Below are positions 5,347 through 63,954 of a DNA stretch of 64,000 nucleotides, in pieces. A program made the position numbers and the translations under genes. Within the stretch, counting starts at the first letter, position 1; every line of letters begins with the position of its first letter. The DNA is from an uncultured virus (IMG/VR IMGVR_UViG_3300025647_000017) (lineage: Duplodnaviria > Heunggongvirae > Uroviricota > Caudoviricetes): the IMG/VR virus record IMGVR_UViG_3300025647_000017; one strand, given 5' to 3'. The notes below the pieces were generated by a model. The model saw nothing but the letters and a program-made list of their open reading frames with translations. It did not search any database and was not told the origin of the DNA.

Positions 5347-8096
5347 TTTTAGATTTAGATAAATATTTACCACAACGACATTATGGAGATATTGAAGCTA
5401 AAGGTTTCTATGATGTTGTTAATACAGAAGATGACGTTTGGTGTCTATGTACTATCACAGAAGATGATCAGGTACTATTATTTCATGATTACCCTGAATA
5501 TGATAATGTAGAGGTATATGATGCTGATGATAATAAAACTTATATCATACCACCGCGTGTAGGATCTCTTATAGATGGTGCTAGGTATTGGTATAAAATT
5601 GGCAGAAGTGGTGGCAAACTCTCAGTTCACAATTGTCAGACATACGATAAACCTTTAATTGAGAAGATTTGGCCTAAGTGTATTATACCTGCATCTTGTT
5701 GGGAGGATACTTATATACAATCAAAGGTGCAATGGTTCGACAGACCTTGTCCAAAAGGTGCCAAATCCGCTCATGGCTTAAAAGCCTATGGCATTAAGTT
5801 TGGTAATAAGAAGCCAGACATAGAAGATTGGACAATCATGGATGCGTATAAACTACACCGTATCGTAGAAGACTGTAAAATACAAAAGATGACTGCCTTA
5901 TTTTTAGATAAGGAAGCAGAAACCTTTAAAACTAAGTTTGGTATGGATTTTACAAAAGCTATTAATGAAGTAGAGAAACCTTATGCAACTATTGCGTTTG
6001 AACAAGAGTTACGTGGTGCTAAGGTTGATGTAGAACATATTAATAAATGTGTAGCTTGGTTAGATATTGAAACTGAACGTTTATCTTCTTACATAGAACC
6101 ATCTTTACCACCTACCTTGAAAAATAAGACAGGACGTGTTGGTAGGAATGAGATGGCTCTTTTATTACTAGGGAGGGATGACGTAGCTGATATTATTGAC
6201 ACTTATACAGGTGAGGTAGTTAAACCTTACTACAAACCTAGTACTAATTTCCACCGTATTGAAAAGCAAAAGTATTACTCAGGGTTTCATATATCATATG
6301 GAGATAGCCCTTCTTTCAAAAAGAAGAATGAACTTACAACGTGGATAAAAGATACGCATCCTGACACTAAAAGTAAAGAATGGGATATAGGTTTTGAGGA
6401 AAAAGAGACTCCCCTCTTAAACAAGAACACTTGTGAATATTTTGGTGTAGAGGAAACAGAAACTGATATTATCTCTGGTCCACATACACGTATTGAATGG
6501 AATATAACTAAACTTACCCAACATGAGAAGGTAAAAGGTTACCTGATAAAATCTGGTATTAAGTGGGCTGAAGTATGGAACATTAAAAAGGTAGACGGTT
6601 ACCCAGCTAGAGCAGAGGAAGATACTATTATCTACTACCCACCAAAAGCCCATCCTTCTATGCAGATAACGTATGAAGTTAAAAAGGGTGAGAACTTAGT
6701 ATCATCCCCTAAATTTGGGGATAAAGAATATGAGCAACTTGGTGATGATGCAGAGATGGGTAAGGATATTGCAAAATACAACACCTATATGCATAGACGT
6801 AGGTTTTTCTCTAATGTTAAAGACCCAGAAAACAAGGGTGTATTAGCTTATGTTAGAGAAGATGGTAGGGTTCCCTGTGGTTTAGGAAACTTCCTTACAT
6901 CTACAGGCCGTAGTAACCAACGGGTTATTGTTAATTTACCCTCTGAATCAAGTCTTTATGGTAAGGAGATGCGAGAAGCTATCATTGCAGATGAAGGTAA
7001 AATTCTAGTTGGTTGTGACCAAAAAAGCTCCCAACTTAGTATTGGAGCGTTTATAGCTAACAACCAAGATTACTACAATGCTGTAGCCACAGGGGTTGAG
7101 TTTGAAAATACAGAAGATGGTTCGCAAGTTTACCTTGGGACTTCAGCCCACTGTGTTAATGCCCGTAACTTTGGTTTAGTTTCTCAAGAAGAATGGACTA
7201 AAGCTGTATCTTCTCAAGATGAGGGGTTAATACACAGTATAGCCTTAAGACGTAAGAAGTCAAAAGGTCCAAGTTTTGGCGTTAACTAATATAGCGCATC
7301 CAACCTTAAACGGGGAAAACCTTACCATTAAGTTGAAGGTAACCTGCCGTGCTAAAGTGCCTAATTGTCACTAAAGCCTAACGACTAGATGTGTATGTAG
7401 AGAAGCATCGTAGAGCCAAGTGGTGGTATTTATACCTTAAATCGAAACGGGTTGGCTATTGCTTGCTAAAGTAATAGATGATATAGTCTCAACTTCTATG
7501 GAAACATAGAGATGCAAGTGATGTTGCTGGCTCAGTATAACGAACTGGGTTGAAGATAATGTATATTTGGTTGTAGTGGTAAAAAACTAGGTTTAATGTT
7601 AGATATACCCCCACAAGAAGGTAACGAGAAAAAGAATAACTTCTTAACTCGTATGGGTCTTGATAAAGTAATTGAATATGTTAAAAGGTGTTCTCAGCAA
7701 TTCAGTTACGGAGGGGGGTTCTTTATCCCTGTCTATGGTTACTGGCTATGGTGTCGTGGTGTAAACGTAGGGGTTAACTATTTTTGTCAAGGATTAGAAG
7801 CTATTATCCAGAAAAAGGCAGTTATAGCTTTTGATAAGATAATGGAAGCCAAGGGTTATAAAACTCACACAGGTTCTGTACTTCAGGTCCATGATGAGAT
7901 CCTTATAGAGACTTTACCTGAGTTAGCTGATGAAGTTGGTAGGATAATGTGTAATTGCTACACAGAAGCTGGTTCTGATATGTTAGCTTGGTATAAGGAG
8001 AATAAATGGGCGTACCCTGCAGGTGGTGAACCTAGTATAAGTGTAGATTTTAGTGGAGGTTATGCTAAAGGTCTCAACTATTATGCGTGTCATTAG
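5343..8096 (+). CDS. polA: Family A DNA polymerase, spliced: join(5343..7282,7562..8096), 824 aa
   Basis: Exonuclease DIE motif, TGR motif, motif A (GCDQKSSQL), motif B restored by splicing (RKKSKGPSFGVIFG), motif C (VHDE). Confidence 0.93.
7283..7561 (+). mobile_element. Group I intron in polA (279 nt, no ORF)
   Basis: P1 exon GCGU with GCGC (U-G); P10 AAUAUA with exon TATATT; P3 CCAACCU/GGGUUGG; P7 GACUA/UAGUC; P9 GAAA tetraloop; terminal G at 7561; frame restored. Confidence 0.93.
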
Positions 8097-14175: not shown

Positions 14176-14232
14176 TCAATATAGTTAGTTGTAGGTACTA
14201 TTATGTGTTATTTCATTCCCAGTTAGATGGGA

Positions 14233-16698
14233 TTAATAGTAAAATATCTCGTCAAAGTAAGCAGCAGCACTGGCACCTGTAACTTTTGCGGTAGATATAA
14301 GCGCTAAGTATCTTGGACTTCCAGATGGAACAGATACCGTGACTAGTCCGCCAGTTCCAGATACAAAACTAGACGCTACCCTGCCATCCGTGGGTGATGT
14401 GGGGGTAGCCTTGTCGTATATTGCTAGGCCTGTCTCAAAATTTGCCGAAGATACTGACACAGGAAGCATTACCCTAGCGCTAACTGTGGTAACTCCTGCA
14501 GGTATTGGAAGGTTTATAATATAAGCTCTAGAAAATACATCCCCAAAACTTGTAGCCCCGTGAGCAATAAGACTTGTTAAGTCTGTTGTTCCAGATCCGC
14601 TACCAACCAATATACTAGCTGTTGCCCCAGTTCTTGCAGCAAGCTTGAAGCCACCGTCCCATACGCCTTTATCTGGAGTTTGTTTATATATTGGGGTGTT
14701 AGTGTCTTTAATTAAATGGATGCCGCTAAACGATATTGAAACGTTTGTTTTACTGTTTAAAATGATATGCAAATAATATGTCCCATTAATCCCAGAAACA
14801 TCAACTACGAAATCACCCGCTTTGTTTGTTGCAGAATAAAATTTTCTACCAGCAACGGGATTTGCCTCGTTTACAGTCTCAGTATCATATAAAGCAATTG
14901 CCACATCTGTACCATCAAATGATAATAACGATAATATGATCTTGTTTACATCCGCAAATGCAATAGTTTGTGTAGTTCTGTAGCTACTACGCCTTGTAGT
15001 TACACCATCAGTTCCAGTAACAGATACTAATGATGTTACTTGAGACATCGATACAGTTCCTTGATTAAATCCTTGGATAAATCCTGTTGGCAATCTTGGG
15101 TTTATGTTTCCCGAACTCAATATGGAGGTAAAAAGTCCTGATGCAGTATCTGGTGACAATAAGCTATCACCTGTTCTAGGGTCAATCACATTACCAGCGG
15201 AGCTATAAGCCGTATCAGGAGTACCAACTAGATAATTTATCTGTGCTGATATTCTTGCGCCAGTATAGTAAAACGCAGTAATTACACCATTTGATGATTT
15301 CTTTGCTCCAACATATCCGCTATCGCCTGTACTTGTTCCCATCTCAGTATACGCAGCAAGTTTTCCGATCCTAACCTGCTTGCTAAAATTATCAGTATAT
15401 GCGTCATCAAATGATGCTGTACTTTGTAATAGGCTAGAAAAGTTATCAGCCTCAGTAAACCGACTATGATGAATAAATTCTATTTGCTTGCTTTCATAGT
15501 TTGGTATCATCTCACCATTAGACAAAGTGAAATTAGTAATAGATGTGCTGTCAACTGGCTCAGTCCATGTTGCTCCGTTATCTGAACTAGTCATAAATTT
15601 AGCTGGTATTACTTGCGATGTGTTGCCAAAGCGAACAGCAGCACGAGCCATACAAACTAGTTTATTATCCCCGATATCGCACCATGCTGGCTCTGTAACA
15701 TCGGTTTGCGTTCCAGCTATTGACGATTGAGACCATGTAGCTCCGTTATCATCAGAATAGAATATTCTTGATAAAAATGTTCCATATTCAACGGCAAACG
15801 TACAAATACGACCGCTTAGCGTCAACAAAAACCCTGATACATCGCCGTTATATGCTATGACATTAGAGCCTCCTGATTGCATTAGCGTGGGTGTAAACGT
15901 CACGCCGTGGTCTGTTGAGCGATATATGTATGTTGCGTCACTATCTCCAGTTGACCATGGGAATCTAGCAACTAAAGCAACATAATCACCGTTTGCTGCA
16001 ATCCCCGCAGCTTGGCATTTATAGCTAAAGTTTCCACTATCACTAGCTACCACCTTAACCGCTGTAAAAGCGTCAGAGTTCGTCTTCTTTTTGCGCATCA
16101 TCACGCTATTAGTGTTGATACTGTGACCAGCATTAGTATTATAAAATACGACAAGATTATCTTCTGATTCATCATAAGCTACAGTTGCGTGGGTCCACGA
16201 TGCAAACGGGTCACCAGCACCATCTGTACTATCGAAAGCCTTTCCCATTTGAGTATAAAAATAATTATCTGTGATTGTCTTGTTTTCCAAAGCTGTCAAA
16301 TCTGCATCAACAGTTGATGCTCCTCTACCAATGTCATTAGCATTATGGGCTGACCCGTCGGCTGGGTTTCTTCCTGATAGGTCTGGGTGTGAGTTTAATT
16401 GAATTTTATAAACAAATCCCAAATCAGGAATAGCGCCAATAGTGTATGGGAGGGACGTCCCTCCCAGAGGTATATAAGCTTCCCCATTGTAAATCATGTA
16501 TCCATTGTAAGATGTGAATGTTTTACCTGAAGCCCAGAAACCATCACCTATTTTTTCATAGTCTGTATATTTATCTAGTGTGAACGCCAACTCAGCAGCT
16601 TTAATTTTCTTATCTTCCCCTCCTTGGCGTATCAATAGTAGATCCCCGTCACCTATATCACCAGCTACTGTTAGGTCGCTTAATTGTTTCACTGCCAT
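14233..16698 (-). CDS. Tail spike or receptor-binding protein with sialidase-like Asp-box beta-propeller
   Basis: Three Asp boxes (YRSTDHGVTF, YSDDNGATWS, TSSDNGATWT); N-terminal tail-anchor-like segment; last gene of the tail operon. Confidence 0.75.
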   Translation of the reverse strand: MAVKQLSDLTVAGDIGDGDLLLIRQGGEDKKIKAAELAFTLDKYTDYEKIGDGFWASGKTFTSYNGYMIYNGEAYIPLGGTSLPYTIGAIPDLGFVYKIQLNSHPDLSGRNPADGSAHNANDIGRGASTVDADLTALENKTITDNYFYTQMGKAFDSTDGAGDPFASWTHATVAYDESEDNLVVFYNTNAGHSINTNSVMMRKKKTNSDAFTAVKVVASDSGNFSYKCQAAGIAANGDYVALVARFPWSTGDSDATYIYRSTDHGVTFTPTLMQSGGSNVIAYNGDVSGFLLTLSGRICTFAVEYGTFLSRIFYSDDNGATWSQSSIAGTQTDVTEPAWCDIGDNKLVCMARAAVRFGNTSQVIPAKFMTSSDNGATWTEPVDSTSITNFTLSNGEMIPNYESKQIEFIHHSRFTEADNFSSLLQSTASFDDAYTDNFSKQVRIGKLAAYTEMGTSTGDSGYVGAKKSSNGVITAFYYTGARISAQINYLVGTPDTAYSSAGNVIDPRTGDSLLSPDTASGLFTSILSSGNINPRLPTGFIQGFNQGTVSMSQVTSLVSVTGTDGVTTRRSSYRTTQTIAFADVNKIILSLLSFDGTDVAIALYDTETVNEANPVAGRKFYSATNKAGDFVVDVSGINGTYYLHIILNSKTNVSISFSGIHLIKDTNTPIYKQTPDKGVWDGGFKLAARTGATASILVGSGSGTTDLTSLIAHGATSFGDVFSRAYIINLPIPAGVTTVSARVMLPVSVSSANFETGLAIYDKATPTSPTDGRVASSFVSGTGGLVTVSVPSGSPRYLALISTAKVTGASAAAYFDEIFYY

Positions 16699-24284: not shown

Positions 24285-27200
24285 TAGTTTTGTACCTCCC
24301 TTATTTTAGAGTCAACCATATCTTTCACTGCACCACTATTTGAAATAGTAACACCCATCTTCTCTGCATCTGCACCAATAGTGATGTTAACTGCATTTGA
24401 ACTAGATGAACTTCCAAACCACGATGGTGATTTATTTGTTGCATCAAACCAAGTTGGTAACCCTAATCCTTGGTCTAACTTGTCAGCGAATAAGAATAGG
24501 TTTTTAAAACTATCATAGAATGGTGTGAGTGGTGAATTAGATAATGTTTTATCCATGCCAGACATGTAACCTGATCCTAGAGTAAAACCGCTGTTACCTT
24601 TTTTCTTCTCACGAGGGTCAAATAATACACCAATTTTATCTTGGTTAAATAAGTTGATTAATTCCTCACCCCAGAATGCAGCCATTTTGATACTATCTGC
24701 AATAGCTAAAGCTGCGGCTACAACAGGACTCATTCTGCCTAATAAACCTGTGAACATAGGTAAGAACCTACTCATAGTTTTTAAGCTGATAGCCCAGTAT
24801 CCAGCAAATGCTGCCATTGGTACTAAGAAGCTACTGTCACCCATTAGTTTAGTTAAGTCATCAAGTAGTACACCAACAGCTTTAAGTGTAGGAGTGACGG
24901 CTTTTAGACCTGCAGAGAGGATCTTAAACACTGAACCAATGATACGACCTAGTGATACCCATAAAGGTTTAAGGTCAACCACAGACTTTGCAGTCTCGTT
25001 AAATAGTTCAGTCAAACCTTCGGCAAATCCAGACTTAAATATCAAGTCACCAGCTTCTTGGAATGATAAACCTAAACGGTTCATTGCCACACGGTTAGAT
25101 AACATGGCTTTGTCTAAACCACCATTAGCACGAGCAGCCTCAGACATACGTTTAGCAAAGAATGGTAATACCTTTTCAGATATCAAACCACCAGTTTGCT
25201 GTAGTGCCATCATAGATGCAACTGAACCATCTAAGGTTAAACCTGCGTCTTTTGCTGCCAGAGCCATTTGTAATATGGCATTTGGTAATACTTCCCCCAT
25301 TTGGAGTTTTCATTTATATACCTAAATTTTCACTTAGGATTAGACTATATCTTAACCCTGACGGGTCTGTATTTTCGAGTAAGATTCTACCCTACATCCT
25401 ATCGGATTAGTCTTTTGAGGTTATACCCTTTTTGCGTTGGCTCTTAGATATGTATTTACCTACCCACCAAGTATAGTCTTTGCTAATATTTTCAAAAGAA
25501 CATCTATATTTTATATTATTAACAGACTTCTTGTTTATCAGATCAGGAATGTCATATAAATCACAAATAAATTTACAACCAAAACCATATTCAAGTAGGT
25601 CACATATTTGTTTTGCTATTATAACAGTCATATTATCCGTAGGTTCTGGTTGTAAATTGTAGTCTTTTGTAAACCAAGAATACAAAACTCCAGTACGTAA
25701 TTTACTTATCTTATTTTTACTTACACCAGTAATAGTGTGTATTTCTAAGGTAGATTTACCACCCTCTATAAGTTTACAGATATCTTCCATAACACTAAGG
25801 GCTAGATCCCTTTTATGGTCACTGGCATGTTCAGGCATATTATCTACATAATGTTTTGAATTCTCTTTGTAGGTTATCCATTCAAGATTGTTCACATTGC
25901 AGTTACTTTTGTCCAAGTCTTTATGATTGACTATCAACCCTTTTTGGTAGGTATCTAATAAGAATGCTTTTGCAACTAAAGTATGACAATTTCTGTACAT
26001 ATTCTTGCCGTTTACACCTCTTAAATTAACACCCCAATAACCACCATCATAAATTCTTCTACTTAGATATCTGTTACTTTTATAACTATACACATTCCCA
26101 TTTTTTATCTACTGAATAGTCTGGGAATTCTTCTATCACTTTTAGCATTATAATCTCCTTCAATGGAGATCAGGTATATTCCTAACGGATTACCTAATCT
26201 TGACACATTTTTACTTTACCAAACACATTACTGTTTGCCCTAACCTATATTACTATGGCTAGTTAGTAGTGTCAAGCTCTAAAGGCTTTCCCGTTTTAAC
26301 ACATTTTATTTAGACACATTTCTGTGAATAGAGCCAAAACTTGAGTTAAATCAATAACTTAGCTCTTCTGCTGAAACTACCCCTTTCAATTCTGTTAATA
26401 TTAGTCGTTAATTAATATATACCTTTTAGTATCTCTATATTACTATAGATGTTCAGACTATATCTTCACTATTTTACAGTGCATTACGTTTCGATACCAC
26501 TTAGTACCTACATCCTATCGGATTAGTCGTTGAGGGCCACCTAGATTATTCTAGACTCCCTGCTGATCACCCAAGTTGGGCTTCCCAGCATATATAATGT
26601 TTTACATGAGCTAAGGTTAACTCATCCTATACACCCTGTATTACTACAAGGATTAGACTATATCTTAACCTTCAACTTAATGTTAAGGTTATTTACGCTT
26701 CGAGGACAATTTATTATCACCCCCTACACTCTTACGAGTTAGTCTTTACACGTTCCTCTTATATGAGGCTTCGCTCGGTATTGTCCTACTTCCTTTTAGG
26801 AGTTTCACCGAATTCATAAATTTAATTATTCATCATATTTCTATGAAGCCAAACAATGATTTATTTGTTGCAAAGCGTTTGTCTATGGACTATATCTTAA
26901 TCCTAAAAAAGGATTCCTTATTTTCGATTAAACTGTATAATCTACACCCTAAAGGGTTAGTCTCTGAAGGTTCTTACTTTAGTAAGGTTCCCTGCTGATT
27001 GTCTCTAATGAAATATCCCAGCAATTAAAAAGGTTTTACATTTAATATTACTATTAAAAGGAGCCACAAACCATTTAGCTCTTGTACTTTCTTCTGCACT
27101 TAGCCCTAGAAGGGTTGACATTTCTGAAATTCCTACGAAAGAGGCTTTCACATCTTCCAGACTCATCTTCCCTCGTGCAGATAACATCTTGGCAAAGTTC

Positions 27201-28041: not shown

Positions 28042-28404
28042 TTACATATTCCCTGCTACTTTACTCATCATATTTCTCTTATCTTCAGCATTCTTGTTAT
28101 CCATTTCTGCTGCTTGTCTCAAGTCGTTATAATAATCTACTAATGATGCCAACTCTAAAAACTCTTCCACACTATATTCCCATTTAAGAGTGCTTAATGT
28201 CTCACTGCAATATTCAGAGTTAGCGATCATAAAGAACATACTATCTACTGCGAAGTTTTCTCTTTGCTTACTGGCGTACTCGATGACGTCCCACTGATTT
28301 CTTCGTTTATATCTTTCTTTAAGTTCTCGACTATATCTTTCATTTTTGGACTCAGCAACGCCATTACTTTCTCTATCGAAGTACGAATCATAGCGTTGCC
28401 CCAC
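28042..28404 (-). CDS. Tail assembly chaperone, -1 frame extension (GT/E'-like)
   Basis: The -1 frame opens exactly at the TTTTTTG slippery site; lies between the chaperone and tape measure. Confidence 0.65.
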   Translation of the reverse strand: MGQRYDSYFDRESNGVAESKNERYSRELKERYKRRNQWDVIEYASKQRENFAVDSMFFMIANSEYCSETLSTLKWEYSVEEFLELASLVDYYNDLRQAAEMDNKNAEDKRNMMSKVAGNM

Positions 28405-59350: not shown

Positions 59351-61947
59351 TTACTTGATGCGGCTTCTGTGGGCAGCCAATGCCGTGGGGGAGGAGATTG
59401 TTGGTAGTGGGTAGGCTTTATGCAATTTAGTCTTTTGCAGAAAAGCCATACAATCGCCAGCGCAGTCAACCCAGTCATCCTTGATCGATGCTGTAGATGG
59501 ACTTCCATCAAAAGCTTCTAACTCTTTGTAGAAAGCCTCTAAAGTGGCTTTATTTTCAAAAGAACTTTCAACTATATGTACTAACCCATTCTGACATGCA
59601 GAAGAGAATATAGAGAAACGCTTTACTTTGCCACCTTTTACGTTACCAACTTCAGAACCTCTTACATGAAAACCTTCATTTGTAAGCATCTTAGCTAAGT
59701 CTTCAAACTGCGCCTTACCAGCGCCACTCTCTTTAGGCAGTAATATATAAGTATCTTCTCCATCCCATTGAGCTTGTTGCAACATCCATGTATTTCTCTC
59801 GCCAAAGCGTTTCCTAAACCTACCAACTACATCAGTTTTAGGGTCTTTTATCTCTGGGTGATAATTAGCAACTATAAAATATAGGCCGTCCTTTCTAATC
59901 ATACGTACTGATGCAGAATAATCTGGATATCTATTTTTGTCACTAGGTTCAGAATGAGCTAAATCCCATGCTCTACATGCTAAACCTCCAACTGGCTCAT
60001 TATCTACTTTGTGTAACCACTCCCTCTGGAATAGGTTACTCCCTTCTGGTCTTGCTAGCCAATTCGATTTGTTACAAAATTGTTAAATCTTGCACCTTAC
60101 GGTCTCTATGTCACCATAGAAGTTCAGACTATATCTTTACCTATTAAGGTATCTAACATTTCCACCTACTAGAAGTAAGCGTACACCATTTCTGGTTAGT
60201 CGTTGCACTACACAATTATATATTTTGCATAGCTCAGTATTGTCTCAGAGAGATATCCACTGAATTAAATAGATTTATAAAGACGGCAATTGTTCACCGT
60301 CTAGTAGTCTTGCCCTGTTAATCTTAGTCTGTGCCTTAAGTGCAGACAGATACTTCGGATTTTGTTTGATTAGGGCTGGATTCTTAACTCCTTGTTTTAT
60401 AACAAGGAGTTTGGACTATATCTTCACCTCTAAAGGTGTTCTATTTTCGAGTATAAGCACCCTACACCCTAACGGGTTAGTCTCTGAAGGTGTTAACCTA
60501 TGGTTAACGTCCCTGCTGATTGTCTTTAGTTTATAAAGAGTTCCCAGCAATTAAAAGAATTTTCACCATGAAATTACTAACATGGGCGACAATCATCTAT
60601 CGAATATATTTCCCCCAATAAAACAAAACGTCATTGGAGGGACGTACACTGTCTTATCTTCAATTGGATTATACACATAACATAGGTCTGGGTATTGCTC
60701 TGCCAATGTTTCAGGATCATCTGCGAACACTGGGGTATCATCAACTACCAAGAAATATCTTATATGCCCTAATTTACTCTCATCAAACACTCCAGTTTCA
60801 TCTAAATAATACTCTACCCATTGAAAAACCCAACTATCTGCATCTGGGTTGGTAGTGGCTAACATAAATGAATCACTGTCTGCAGCAGAACGCATACGTC
60901 CCATTAAATATAAAAACTGCGAACAAGTGAAGTGAGTTAGTTCATCGAATCCGACAAAAGAATATTGTAAACCTTGCTTGTAACCTATTGATTACTATGG
61001 ACTATATCACTGTCTACTTAGTAGACACTCTATTTTCGAGATTGTATTAATCCCTACACCCTAACGGGTTAGTCTCTGAAGGTGTTAACCTAGGGTTAAC
61101 GTCCCTGCTGATTGGTCACTACGTGACTATCCCAGCAATTAAAAGAGTTATTCGAAACACATTACTGTATTAAGCCACCAAATTTTAATGGTTACCTTCC
61201 GCGTCACTTTCATGCTCAAGGTGTGTAAATTTAAGGTTGCCTCCTTTATTACCCTCTGCACCACTGAACATGATTTCCATGTCCTTTTCTCTCACCCTTG
61301 TTCCTAGGGGTTGGTATAATTTCTTTGCCTCACTAAACAGACCACCTGCTGCTTTCAATGGAGGGGAAGTCCTACGGAACATTACCCCCTCAAAGTTGGG
61401 GTCGTTGTGAGCGTAATACCCTGCCTTCAATAAGAGTAACCTACTTTTGCCAGATCCTGCCAAACTGGACTATTATTCTTTATGTCACCATAAAGCTTAG
61501 ATCATATCTTCCACATATAAGTGGCTTTCCATTTCGAGTATAAATACCCTACACCTCTTCAGGTTGATCGTTGCACACAGTATAATTAAATACCTTCGCT
61601 CAGTATTGTCTCGTAGAGATATCCACTGAATTAGAAAAGTTGATTATCGAGGTGCCACAGGATTTACTAGCACCTCCGTAGATCATTACATCTACCTTCA
61701 TTTGCGCTGCTAACGCTTGTTTCACTACCTTACGTGGATCGTTACACCACTCTATGCATTACTGCACAAGTTGAGACTATATCTTATTACTCTATTGTTT
61801 CGAGTTCACTTGAACTCTACATCCTTTCGGATTAGTCGTTACACGTTTTTAATTCGCTAGGTATTATCCTATAAGGGACCTTCACCTAATTAAATAGATT
61901 TATAGTAGGCAAACATTACCTACTTGCGGGGATAATTCATTACTCAT
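59351..61947 (-). CDS. terL: Terminase large subunit, spliced from 6 exons: 61947..61918, 61722..61669, 61460..61188, 60976..60599, 60382..60296, 60064..59351 (511 aa)
   Basis: Splicing restores SPQVG|KQ, Walker A YGGA|AGSGKS, H|QGLQYSFVGFDELTHF Walker B, TTNP, D|NPAL, RLLDG|NW, RAWDLA, PDYSA and DDWVD; 1536 nt in frame. Confidence 0.93.
60065..60295 (-). mobile_element. Group I intron terL-i5 (231 nt, no ORF)
   Basis: P1 GACGGU/GCCGUC; P10 CAAUU/AAUUG; P7 GACUA/UAGUC; P9 GUGA; terminal G at 60065. Confidence 0.92.
60383..60598 (-). mobile_element. Group I intron terL-i4 (216 nt, no ORF)
   Basis: P1 CGAU/GUCG; P10 GAUU/AAUC; UUGCUGG..UCAGCAG core; P7; terminal G at 60383. Confidence 0.92.
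60977..61187 (-). mobile_element. Group I intron terL-i3 (211 nt, no ORF)
   Basis: P1 CCAU/GUGG; P10 UUG/CAA; begins with UAA; core nearly identical to i4; terminal G at 60977. Confidence 0.92.
61461..61668 (-). mobile_element. Group I intron terL-i2 (208 nt, no ORF), inside Walker A
   Basis: P1 GAGGUGCU/GGCACCUC; P10 UCCUGU/GCAGGA; variant P7 GAUCA/UGAUC; P9 GUGA. Confidence 0.92.
61723..61917 (-). mobile_element. Group I intron terL-i1 (195 nt, no ORF, no P2 or P8)
   Basis: P1 GUAGGU/GCCUAC; P10 UGUUU/AAACA; P3 UCUAUU/AAUAGA; P7; P9 GUAA; terminal G at 61723. Confidence 0.9.
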
Positions 61948-63409
61948 AACTGTACCTCTCTTTGTATAAATCTTCTATAAAAGATATATCTATATTATTG
62001 GAGAAGATGTCAGAGATATTAGGTAATATTACATCATCATTACTCCCGTCTATAATATCATTAACCATCTCGTATAGAGTACTATCTAGGTTGAATATTT
62101 CCGTATACCCTCCGAATTTTATATTTGATTTTACCTGTAGTGGCTTGAAGAACATTTTTAAACTACTTTCAATCCTAGCACAATCTAGATATGACATCCT
62201 TCTGTAATTGAGGAATGTAAAAACAGAGTCTAGTGGTAGGTCTTTCTTGTATGTATACTCCCTACTAGATAGGCTACTAGTAATACCTATTTTATAAACA
62301 TTATCATCTAAGGAATCCACATATCCTAGGTAAAAATACCCATACTTCTTATGGATATTAGGTATTTTCAATATAGAGGCTATAGACCACCTATTCATAC
62401 CTAACTTACCACACGTAGGGCAACCAGAGTTTTTATTCTTATCCCTGTGCATTAGAGGGGTAACATTAAACCATTCATCGTGCTGATTACACTTAAGTTT
62501 AACCTTAGTGGTATTATTTACATACTGCACTAAGGAGTAATCTAGCGCACCATTCCCATATTCCACAATAGAATCAGAGATAAATTGGTCTTTACCTAAA
62601 AACATACCTTCCCTAGAACATTTCTGACAACCTTGCCCATTTACATGGTTATTGGCTATAACAGAAAATTCACCATGCCCTTGTTCCTTGCAAAACACTT
62701 TAACATTTTCAACAGCATTGATATATTCAGTATTGGTGTAGTCGTATAAGTTATTATGTACCTCCATTGCCTCTTTAATAAAAGCTTCGTTGGTTTTTGT
62801 CATGGATATTTTACGATCTTCTTCTCCGCATGTAGGGCAACCTTGCCCTTGTATATGTGCAGACGGTCTCTGTTTAAAAGGGATGTTGTGTTTTGTACAT
62901 AAGATCTCCATCATAGTGCGACTACAAACATAGTCCTCTACGTTATACACATATTTATCTCCGTGCAATGCTTTTGCTTTAGTGATGAAGACCTCACCTT
63001 CTTTTAAAATTTTACAATTACCACACCCACCATAGGGAGTATCTCTAACAGAAGATAAAGTAGATACATAGTGTCCATGTAACATACAGAACATATCTTG
63101 TTTAGAGTGTATGGTTTGGTACTCAGGGTTATCTAATACCTCATATTTATCACCGTGAGCCTTTTCAATTAAACCCTTCTGTATTTCAAAGTTCTCTCGT
63201 CTTCGTATAGCCAATGCACAATCACCGCACCTTTGTCTTGCGTGAATATGAGAGGAAGGCATCATAGTAAACTCACCATGTATTGGGCATATAATCCTAA
63301 TACTAGTCAACATAGCTATATATGGGTCTGGGTATTCATAATAGTCACCGTGGATAGCCTTCGCTTTTTCTATGAAAGTTTTAGTATTAAATTTTTCAGC
63401 CAATAGCAA
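61940..63409 (-). CDS. Free-standing homing endonuclease: about 5 Zn-ribbon (DUF723-like) repeats plus a GIY-YIG/T5orf172-like domain
   Basis: Repeated F..KA..HG..Y.Y..Y......I.C..HG.F..P..H..G.GC..C; YFYL..YKIGIT...R and GGYTE.F; its 3' end overlaps the terL start codon. Confidence 0.8.
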   Translation of the reverse strand: MLLAEKFNTKTFIEKAKAIHGDYYEYPDPYIAMLTSIRIICPIHGEFTMMPSSHIHARQRCGDCALAIRRRENFEIQKGLIEKAHGDKYEVLDNPEYQTIHSKQDMFCMLHGHYVSTLSSVRDTPYGGCGNCKILKEGEVFITKAKALHGDKYVYNVEDYVCSRTMMEILCTKHNIPFKQRPSAHIQGQGCPTCGEEDRKISMTKTNEAFIKEAMEVHNNLYDYTNTEYINAVENVKVFCKEQGHGEFSVIANNHVNGQGCQKCSREGMFLGKDQFISDSIVEYGNGALDYSLVQYVNNTTKVKLKCNQHDEWFNVTPLMHRDKNKNSGCPTCGKLGMNRWSIASILKIPNIHKKYGYFYLGYVDSLDDNVYKIGITSSLSSREYTYKKDLPLDSVFTFLNYRRMSYLDCARIESSLKMFFKPLQVKSNIKFGGYTEIFNLDSTLYEMVNDIIDGSNDDVILPNISDIFSNNIDISFIEDLYKERYSYE

Positions 63410-63954
63410 CCTCCACCTTATCTACATACCACTCAACATAGTTCCCTATATAAAAGTTTGGTATACCGTCTAACACTTCTTCCCCAAACTTATCAAACAA
63501 AGTCTTAACTTCTTTCCACTTATCTTCTTGGAATTCAGAAGCTATATAGATTTCATTATCATAATCAGAAAGGTCATGTGATGTACCACCATACGTATAA
63601 TCTATATAATCTTCCTGAATAGACGGATCTAACCCTGCAATCAACATTGAAGTTCCATGACCTACGTGCTTCATAGAGCATTCGTCTTGATCACCACATC
63701 TATCAATCTGCCATAACAATTGATTAACCTTCAAATTAGCTTGTTTCTTATTCATATCCTCTCCTTTAGTGTAGTTTATCTTTAGTACCCATATCAATCA
63801 TAATACTATTAATATGAGGTATCTTATTTAATAATTCAATCAGCTTATCCAATTCTACGTACCCGTAGAGGTCGCTGACACGTTCTTTCTCTCCTCCCTC
63901 CATCATCATATCATACTCCATAATTAACTCTGCTACGCCACTCTCAGGAGTCAC
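63396..63954 (-). CDS. Two hypothetical proteins (about 63396-63755, 63766-63954)
   Basis: ORFs coupled to the endonuclease gene. Confidence 0.5.

Follow-up and report, generated by a model that had tools for sequence, protein, structure and literature searches.

The intron and its place in terL

The DNA analysed here is a 64,000-nucleotide stretch (the window) from an uncultured virus of the Caudoviricetes (IMG/VR record IMGVR_UViG_3300025647_000017). The virus is kin to Shewanella phage 1/40: a 2.3-kb query had 83% identity to that phage over 63% of its length. On the minus strand, the gene for the terminase large subunit (terL) is split between codons 10 and 11 by a 195-nt element at 61917..61723, read 5' to 3', which we describe as an IA2-like group I intron without P2 and P8. 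Exon 1 (61918..61947, minus strand) opens with an ATG at 61947..61945 and encodes MSNELSPQVG; a ribosome-binding motif, GAGAGG, lies ahead of it at 61960..61955. The final 6 nt of exon 1, GUAGGU, also form the 5' strand of P1. Exon 2 (61669..61722, minus strand) encodes KQALAAQMKVDVMIYGGA.

Two relatives whose TerL has no intron at this place share the N-terminus coded by exon 1: phage 1/40, which codes MSSELAPQVGKQSLAAQMKVDVMIYGGA uninterrupted across the junction, and Vibrio phage K406, whose TerL N-terminus is MSKPSIAPQPGKQAVAAQMKVDVMIYGG, likewise uninterrupted. In addition, a 1032-nt contig of run X3 covers 61657-61722 and then continues into a 30-nt loose end that codes for MSNELSPQIG on the minus strand. 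To judge from its sequence, this contig is a natural intronless allele, joined at the same base as the window exons; run X3 also carries the intron-bearing form. Because these three intronless homologues all join there, the exon junction lies exactly at 61918|61722, and the peptide that spans it, PQxG|KQ, is conserved in the three. Exon 1 differs from that of phage 1/40 in five codons, with synonymous changes in three of the five.

Among the placements that preserve the protein, only 61917..61723 provides both a U before the 5' splice site and a terminal G, the last intron base being G61723. A P10 of 5 bp pairs the guide bases UGUUU (61915..61911) with the first bases of exon 2, AAACA. The U before the 5' splice site, the terminal G and P10 single out these coordinates, which the initial annotation had given exactly, leaving the minus strand unstated.

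The terL gene is essential, and an unspliced reading meets a stop codon six codons into the intron, so removal of the intron is needed. An identical copy was found in an IMG/VR contig (341 of 341 aligned bases the same), and the intron-bearing allele is present in contigs of four runs from three studies. The intron is thus not an accident of assembly, and the lineage persists with it. Across the four runs a single position of the 195-nt intron varied, 61738 in the loop of P9.1; in the same runs several variants were seen in the neighbouring terL intron 2.

Secondary structure of the intron

All features in this section lie on the minus strand. P1 consists of 6 bp between GUAGGU (61923..61918) and GCCUAC (61910..61905) and includes a U61918.G61910 wobble; the P1 loop with the internal guide AAUGUUU, together with the 3' strand of P1, occupies 61905..61917. 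From P1 the sequence passes through the joiner J1/3, UAUAAA (61899..61904), directly into the 5' strand of P3, UCUAUU (61893..61898), which pairs with 61796..61791. With only these 6 nt at P2's place, there is no P2; the absence of a hairpin here had been noted initially and is plain in the sequence.

The P4-P5-P6 domain (61843..61888) is read from the sequence and from pairing across the class of related introns described below, and for P4 and P5 also from the minimum free energy (MFE) fold. P4 pairs UAGGUG (61888..61883) with UACCUA (61863..61858) in 6 bp, and P5 pairs GUCC (61879..61876) with GGAU (61869..61866) in 4 bp. P6 is minimal, with 3 bp between GCG (61857..61855) and CGU (61845..61843), a 9-nt loop and no P6a, and the small size of the intron is partly owed to it. 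J6/7, GUAAC (61842..61838), precedes the 5' strand of P7, in which GACUA (61833..61837) pairs with UAGUC (61779..61775); this helix is 100% paired in the class. The IA2-type insertion follows, made up of P7.1 (AUCC-GAAA-GGAU, 61832..61821) and P7.2 (GAGUUC-AAGU-GAACUC, 61817..61802), and J7.2/3, GAAAC (61801..61797), then leads to the 3' strand of P3, AAUAGA (61791..61796), the partner of UCUAUU.

At P8's place stands a 5-nt linker, GUAAU (61786..61790), followed by AAGAUAUAGUC (61775..61785), which comprises J8/7 (AAGAUA) and the P7 3' strand (UAGUC). Five nucleotides between the P3 3' strand and AAGAUAUAGUC are too few for a hairpin, so there is no P8. In seven other introns of the window the same position, according to Rfam alignments, holds 10-22 nt that form a small hairpin.

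P9, UGUGCA-GUAA-UGCAUA (61753..61768), is kept with its GUAA loop, as initially described. It is recovered in the MFE fold and is 100% paired in the class, with five of its six pairs covarying. P9.1 and the 3' tail (61723..61750) contain a helix of GUGG (61750..61747) with CCAC (61737..61734), which is 94% paired, and end at G61723. A proposed P9.0 of ACU (61771..61769) with AGU (61726..61724) is weak, and no P9.2 was identified in the P9 domain.

Group I identity and folding

Rfam matches RF00028 to 61752-61958 on the minus strand at 48.8 bits (E = 1.6e-10 in a 4.5-kb search and 2.3e-9 for the whole window), with ends that are wrong for the intron. At the gathering level Rfam reports six group I introns in the window, none of them at 61723..61917; with reporting by E-value, 10 of 11 rows are RF00028. 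The element has the U.G wobble in P1, the terminal G, P10, the P3/P7 pseudoknot, the P4-P5-P6 domain, J8/7 within AAGAUAUAGUC and the GACUA strand of P7. What it lacks among the group I hallmarks is a P8 helix between the P3 3' strand and J8/7. We file it under group I nonetheless, as a P8-less variant, because of its homology and because all features of the catalytic core are present. P7.1 and P7.2 together with an extended P9 are IA2 features (PMC4227781), and the intron has both hairpins between P7 and the P3 3' strand, each 100% paired and covarying.

The MFE fold of the intron with short flanks recovers P1, P4, P5, P7.1, P7.2 and P9. Its z-score is -2.88, and none of 200 shuffled sequences folds equally well. 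No hairpin at P8's place appears in either the MFE or the centroid fold, and the search by folding for an alternative P8, which the initial annotation had suggested could overturn its proposal, thus found none. P8 could in principle have been relocated to a long-range pairing, for example of the linker bases UAAU (61789..61786) with AUUA in the P6 loop (61852..61849), since this 4-nt complementarity is present in the sequence. We consider such a relocation very improbable: it amounts to four A-U pairs in an A+U-rich RNA, it is absent from the MFE and centroid folds, and the class of related introns has a different linker and a different P6, between which no such complementarity was seen by eye.

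P8-less introns in other phages

Introns with the same layout recur in many phages. A first pattern, CTCGAA-N(6-15)-AAGATATAGTC, retrieved 93 loci from IMG/VR, in most of which CTCGAA lies inside a P8 loop; a set in which the gap measures 12 or 13 nt and GACUA lies upstream is P8-less. A sharper pattern, GAA-N8-CNNAG-AAGATATAGTC, retrieved 62 loci, 54 of them distinct, and 40 of these 54 have GACUA no more than 220 nt upstream and a hairpin that ends just before GAA. We define the class by P7.2 followed by GAA, an 8-nt P3 3' strand, a 5-nt linker directly before AAGAUAUAGUC, and an A-rich joiner instead of P2. The consensus of the class linker is CNNAG. AAGAUAUAGUC occurs in every row of the class, most rows having been retrieved with this motif in the search pattern.

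For 21 introns the 5' half lies in the fetched flank. Each can pair the 8 nt that follow GAA with the strand immediately preceding J3/4 (AAUUGC...), forming 6-7 bp, and the set comprises 19 different P3 sequences. When strands of different introns were paired with each other, a run of at least 6 occurred in 13.6% of 420 combinations, a figure that serves as a sanity check only because the matched rows had been selected for pairing. All 21 proceed from P1 to a 5-11-nt A-rich joiner without P2; locus L102 was also parsed, which brings the number to 22. This parsed set is confined to rows whose P3 abuts J3/4, checked by eye, as automatic P3/P8 finders mis-assigned many introns that bear a P8 or an open reading frame (ORF).

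One member belongs to a cultured phage, Streptococcus phage Str-PAP-1 (NC_028666, corresponding to IMG/VR locus L149), in which an unannotated P8-less intron interrupts the tape measure gene. Other insertion sites include the TerL Walker A region (L017, L050 and L102) and a DNA polymerase site (L111), and several members carry endonuclease ORFs in P6. The DNA polymerase site (exon ...RDNAKTF) is occupied by a P8-bearing intron in Yersinia phage Berlin (NC_008694, L161; P8 GCGC-UGAG-GCGC) and by a P8-less intron in L111 and about seven similar IMG/VR loci with the linker CUAAG. Both the Berlin and the L111 intron have an ORF in P6, and the two constitute a natural matched pair for the contribution of P8.

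Applied to 596 Gb of prokaryote genomes, this pattern had 95 matches. Only six of them have a P7 context, four apparently P8-less, and most of the others are chance matches, about 70 being expected by chance according to a rough estimate. The class is therefore essentially viral.

Several other leads were rejected. The introns reached by blastn in Yersinia phage Berlin (DNA polymerase), Brochothrix phage A9, Enterococcus phage EF1, Bacillus phage Mawwa and Escherichia phage PSD2002 all keep P8. A 145-nt Rfam match in Vibrio phage 10AMN (L005 38-182) is not a mini-intron: it covers the 3' half of an intron that has both an ORF and a P8. Within the window, an exact AGATATAGTC at 28329-28338 on the minus strand lies inside an apparently ordinary coding sequence and was taken as a chance match.

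Covariation

A covariance model was made from the window intron and a structure drawn by hand, and relatives found with it score 43-82 bits. The alignment used for counting has 14 rows, namely 13 P8-less introns (that of the window and 12 class members) and intron 2 of the window terL, with P7 and P9.0 entered as pseudoknots for pair counting. The 5' halves of ORF-bearing introns were misaligned by the single-sequence model, and these rows were left uncounted.

Standard pairs fill 96.1% of 662 cells, compared to 66.4% after shuffling (a level of pairing reached in 0 of 500 shuffles) and 36-42% with slid partners. Both sides have changed in 42 of the 53 pairs. P3 is paired in 98.8% of its cells with changes on both sides in all six pairs, and five of the six P1 pairs have likewise changed on both sides. 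Pairing is complete (100%) in P4, P6, P7, and P7.1 and P7.2, and reaches 85.5% in P5. The helices that covary are P1, P3, P4, P7.1, P7.2, P9 and P9.1. The 13 P8-less rows are gap-free between GAA and J8/7, where intron 2 has an insertion of 9 nt that constitutes its P8. A covariance alignment, to IA/IB models, had been proposed at the outset as a check, and the covariation seen here supports the fold.

Loss of P2 and P8

The initial annotation tied the two absences to a contact in which the L2 tetraloop docks on P8. This contact is documented, having been described for the yeast bI3 intron (PMC2813881) and named for Azoarcus (PMC2219692). According to the former, P8 is part of a P9-P7-P3-P8 domain, and the three domains of the fold are linked by L2-P8 and L9-P5 contacts. 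In the P2-bearing introns of the window, L2 is GUAA. The joint absence of P2 and P8 fits this tetraloop-helix contact and, as both leave the same end of P3 (to go by strand order), the loss of both would remove the whole junction.

Introns were classified by eye. Among P8-bearing relatives, 12 have P2 and 11 lack it; among P8-less introns, none has P2 and 22 lack it (Fisher p = 7e-5, an indication only, as the rows are phylogenetically related, the P8-bearing ones including two window-1/40 orthologous pairs, and the classification is our own). The idea that both partners are lost together therefore holds in one direction, as none of the 22 P8-less introns retains P2, but not in the other, since three other introns of the window lack P2 and keep P8. 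Because loss of P2 alone is common, loss of P8 seems to be a subset of the P2-less state more than one half of a strict pair.

The window intron may have lost its P8 separately from the class. Its linker, GUAAU, departs from CNNAG at both conserved ends, and its two closest relatives with at least 100 aligned core positions both keep P8. These are an intron of Pseudomonas phage PA28 (78% identity over 130 positions and 81.7 bits with the window-derived model) and, at 73% over 117 positions, an intron of phage 1/40 that bears an endonuclease and has almost the same P7.2. Among the P8-less relatives L017 comes closest, at 71%. A separate P8 deletion in the window lineage is favoured by these comparisons, in which the differences are small. 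The broader proposal is that phages harbour an undescribed natural subclass without the P2-P3-P8 junction, in which P8 would be dispensable in vivo, and that the window intron would be an independent second instance; we rate this combination as falling just short of an even chance. If it is true, the same minimisation happened more than once. In the initial annotation the intron was viewed as a second, independent route to a ribozyme of less than 200 nt. The layout itself is not singular, with at least 40 distinct IMG/VR loci and Str-PAP-1 sharing it, and introns of less than 200 nt had already been predicted in print (PMC11878797).

Proposed splicing pathway

We think it probable, with good confidence, that this P8-less, P2-less intron of the IA2-like type at the 5' end of terL follows the usual two-step splicing pathway of group I introns. 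In the first step, a free guanosine occupying P7 would attack after U61918, the base that P1 holds through its U.G pair, and the terminal G61723 would next occupy the same guanosine site. P10, pairing UGUUU with AAACA, would position exon 2 for ligation, which would restore ...PQVG|KQALAAQ..., and the TerL N-terminus expected from the joined exons is MSNELSPQVGKQ. With the P2-P3-P8 junction lost, P1 connects to P3 via 6 nt and P3 to J8/7 via 5 nt. The P3-P7 core would be held by P4-P5 with the 3-bp P6, by P7.1 and P7.2, and by P9, with its GUAA loop probably docked on P5.

Several points weigh against this reading. We infer catalytic activity and splicing, as well as the tertiary contacts, from sequence. 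The RF00028 score is 1.2 bits under the curated gathering cut-off of 50 bits, a shortfall that fits the empty P2 and P8 columns in the printed alignment. The covariation is drawn from relatives, because the copies of this intron that turned up were all identical or nearly so, and the alignment leans towards the proposed fold, having been fitted to a model derived from the window intron itself; the slid-partner control on the same fitted alignment still falls to about 40%. P9.0 is unsupported, at 48% paired in this alignment. Because GUAAU differs from CNNAG, conservation within the class is no warrant for the window linker. Finally, exon 2 contains an in-frame AUG (QMKVDV), so that a shortened TerL made without splicing is conceivable.

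This internal AUG, together with the deviant linker and the Rfam score under the cut-off, would fit an intron that is a decaying, splicing-dead remnant, with TerL translated from exon 2 and exon 1 vestigial. That is hardly credible in view of the conservation of the exon 1 peptide and of PQxGKQ in phage 1/40, K406 and the X3 allele. Exon 1 also has GAGAGG and an overlap of its start codon with the stop codon of the preceding frame, whereas no comparable motif was seen before the internal AUG. Moreover, every core helix is intact, with one variant in 195 nt across four runs.

A further view accepts the intron as P8-less and makes its splicing dependent on protein, with a host or phage helper, for example the endonuclease-like protein encoded upstream, replacing the stabilisation by P2 and P8. 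Without L2-P8, an L9-P5-type contact would be the sole documented link between domains (PMC2813881). Of eight spliced genes in Bastillevirinae, four were spliced in infected bacteria alone, and the other four self-spliced in vitro as well (PMC11878797). An endonuclease-like gene does abut terL here, but the Pfam and PHROG matches of this neighbour include no maturase-type domain. A single dedicated cofactor is also difficult to reconcile with the spread of P8-less introns over many unrelated phages and genes, and P7.1 and P7.2 are retained and covary. We therefore regard dependence on a helper protein as unlikely, less so than either a relocated P8 or a dead remnant, and prefer splicing by the standard pathway.

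Comparison with known introns

The phage IA2 introns of T4 (td, nrdB and sunY) and Twort (orf142-I2) bear a P8. The window intron resembles them in its P1 U.G pair, P3/P7 pseudoknot, J8/7 in AAGAUAUAGUC, P7.1 and P7.2, GNRA-type L9 and location in a protein-coding phage gene, and differs from them in having 5 nt in place of P8, no P2, and a 3-bp P6 without P6a. The unannotated PA28 intron (OM234793, about 14185-14370; L004 372-560) likewise lacks P2, with GUAAAA as the joiner, and has a nearly identical P9 and J6/7. Unlike the window intron, it has a P8 (AGUGC-UGUCAG-GCACU) and a single hairpin between P7 and the P3 3' strand; it can be seen as a different trimming of the same scaffold. The introns of the CNNAG class share with the window intron the order of P1, A-rich joiner and P3, then P7, P7.1, P7.2, GAA, an 8-nt P3 3' strand, a 5-nt linker and AAGAUAUAGUC. 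They differ in the linker, CNNAG compared to GUAAU, and in occupying other genes or sites.

The tRNA-Ile intron of Azoarcus, at about 205 nt, is a classic minimal group I ribozyme and, like the window intron, is small and has few peripheral elements. It relies on L2-P8 (PMC2219692), whereas the window intron lacks both of these elements; tetraloop-receptor motifs of the Azoarcus intron are located at J8/8a and J5/5a (PMC1747187). The yeast mitochondrial aI5beta intron is reported to have L9-P5 and to lack the P2-P8 interaction (PMC2813881). In contrast to the window intron, it is 1574 nt long and needs Mrs1, and what is reported missing is the contact, not the P8 helix. Predicted sizes of Bastillevirinae introns and their relatives range from 173 to 3279 nt, and some terL genes have two or three introns (PMC11878797).

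No description of a P8-less group I intron was found in a limited literature search, which did not extend to the supplementary structure figures of PMC11878797, and none is given in the excerpts of PMC3984707, PMC2248736, PMC4227781 and PMC11835236. We call the class undescribed provisionally on this basis. The conserved core of group I introns is taken to include P8, and L2-P8 counts as one of two ties between domains (PMC2813881). Natural introns without P2 and P8 in essential phage genes would reveal how much can be removed from the fold before it stops working. Natural scaffolds of about 190-200 nt would serve structural work, folding studies and ribozyme engineering. There are also consequences for annotation: the window intron falls under the Rfam cut-off, the loci that we inspected in published phage genomes are unannotated, and genes interrupted by introns of this kind end up recorded as fragments or "hypothetical proteins", as exemplified by terL of phage 1/40, which is annotated in pieces.

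The neighbouring frame and other introns in the window

Upstream of terL lies an endonuclease-like frame of 493 codons (61943..63421, minus strand), measured from stop to stop with its start codon unassigned. The stop codon at 61942..61940 shares bases with the start of terL (AUGAGUAA), and the frame ends 25 nt from the splice site. It matches T5orf172 (4.5e-7) and MUG113 (1.8e-6) in Pfam, and phrog_681, "endonuclease" (6.6e-71), and phrog_559 (2e-42). Phage 1/40 has different DNA upstream of its terL. The frame may encode a free-standing homing endonuclease that partners the ORF-less intron, and its adjacency, with the natural intronless allele, points to possible joint mobility of intron and endonuclease.

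The window terL (60104..61947, minus strand) is apparently split by five group I introns, compared to up to three in the Bastillevirinae survey (PMC11878797). They lie, all on the minus strand, at 61917..61723, 61668..61461, about 61197..60979, about 60609..60390 and about 60305..60104. In phage 1/40, terL has some introns in common with the window, lacks the first, and carries an HNH-bearing intron in the corresponding stretch. Intron 2 (61461..61668, minus strand) has its terminal G at 61461, with exon 3 starting at 61460. This end was set by the TerL of K406 (MIYGGSAGSGKS) and by a P10 of 6 bp (UCCUGU with GCAGGA); the Rfam 3' end, 61478, is wrong. Intron 2 has no P2, keeps a small P8, and shows a deviant P7 and J8/7 (GAUCA, AAGAUAUGAUC) with compensating changes. 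In runs X2, X3, X5 and X6, examined over 61400..62100, depth rises 3-8 fold at about 61592-61639, which corresponds to P4-P5 of intron 2, with several loose ends. This suggests that the P4-P5 segment is common to other introns or phages in the samples.

No tRNA genes were found in the window. Elsewhere in it, three group I introns stand head to tail at 26433..27087 on the minus strand (Rfam 26876-27087, 26634-26868 and 26433-26629). Their Rfam ends leave gaps of 4 and 7 nt, and micro-exons of about 8-20 nt are possible at the first gap, varying with the end assigned to the first intron. A match of 25.3 bits at 25321..25530 (minus strand) is the 3' part of a group I intron with a P8 of CCC-GUCA-GGG, and its upstream part may hold an ORF. 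At 7219..7511 on the plus strand, a group I match of 45.6 bits is common to the window and virus record G001.

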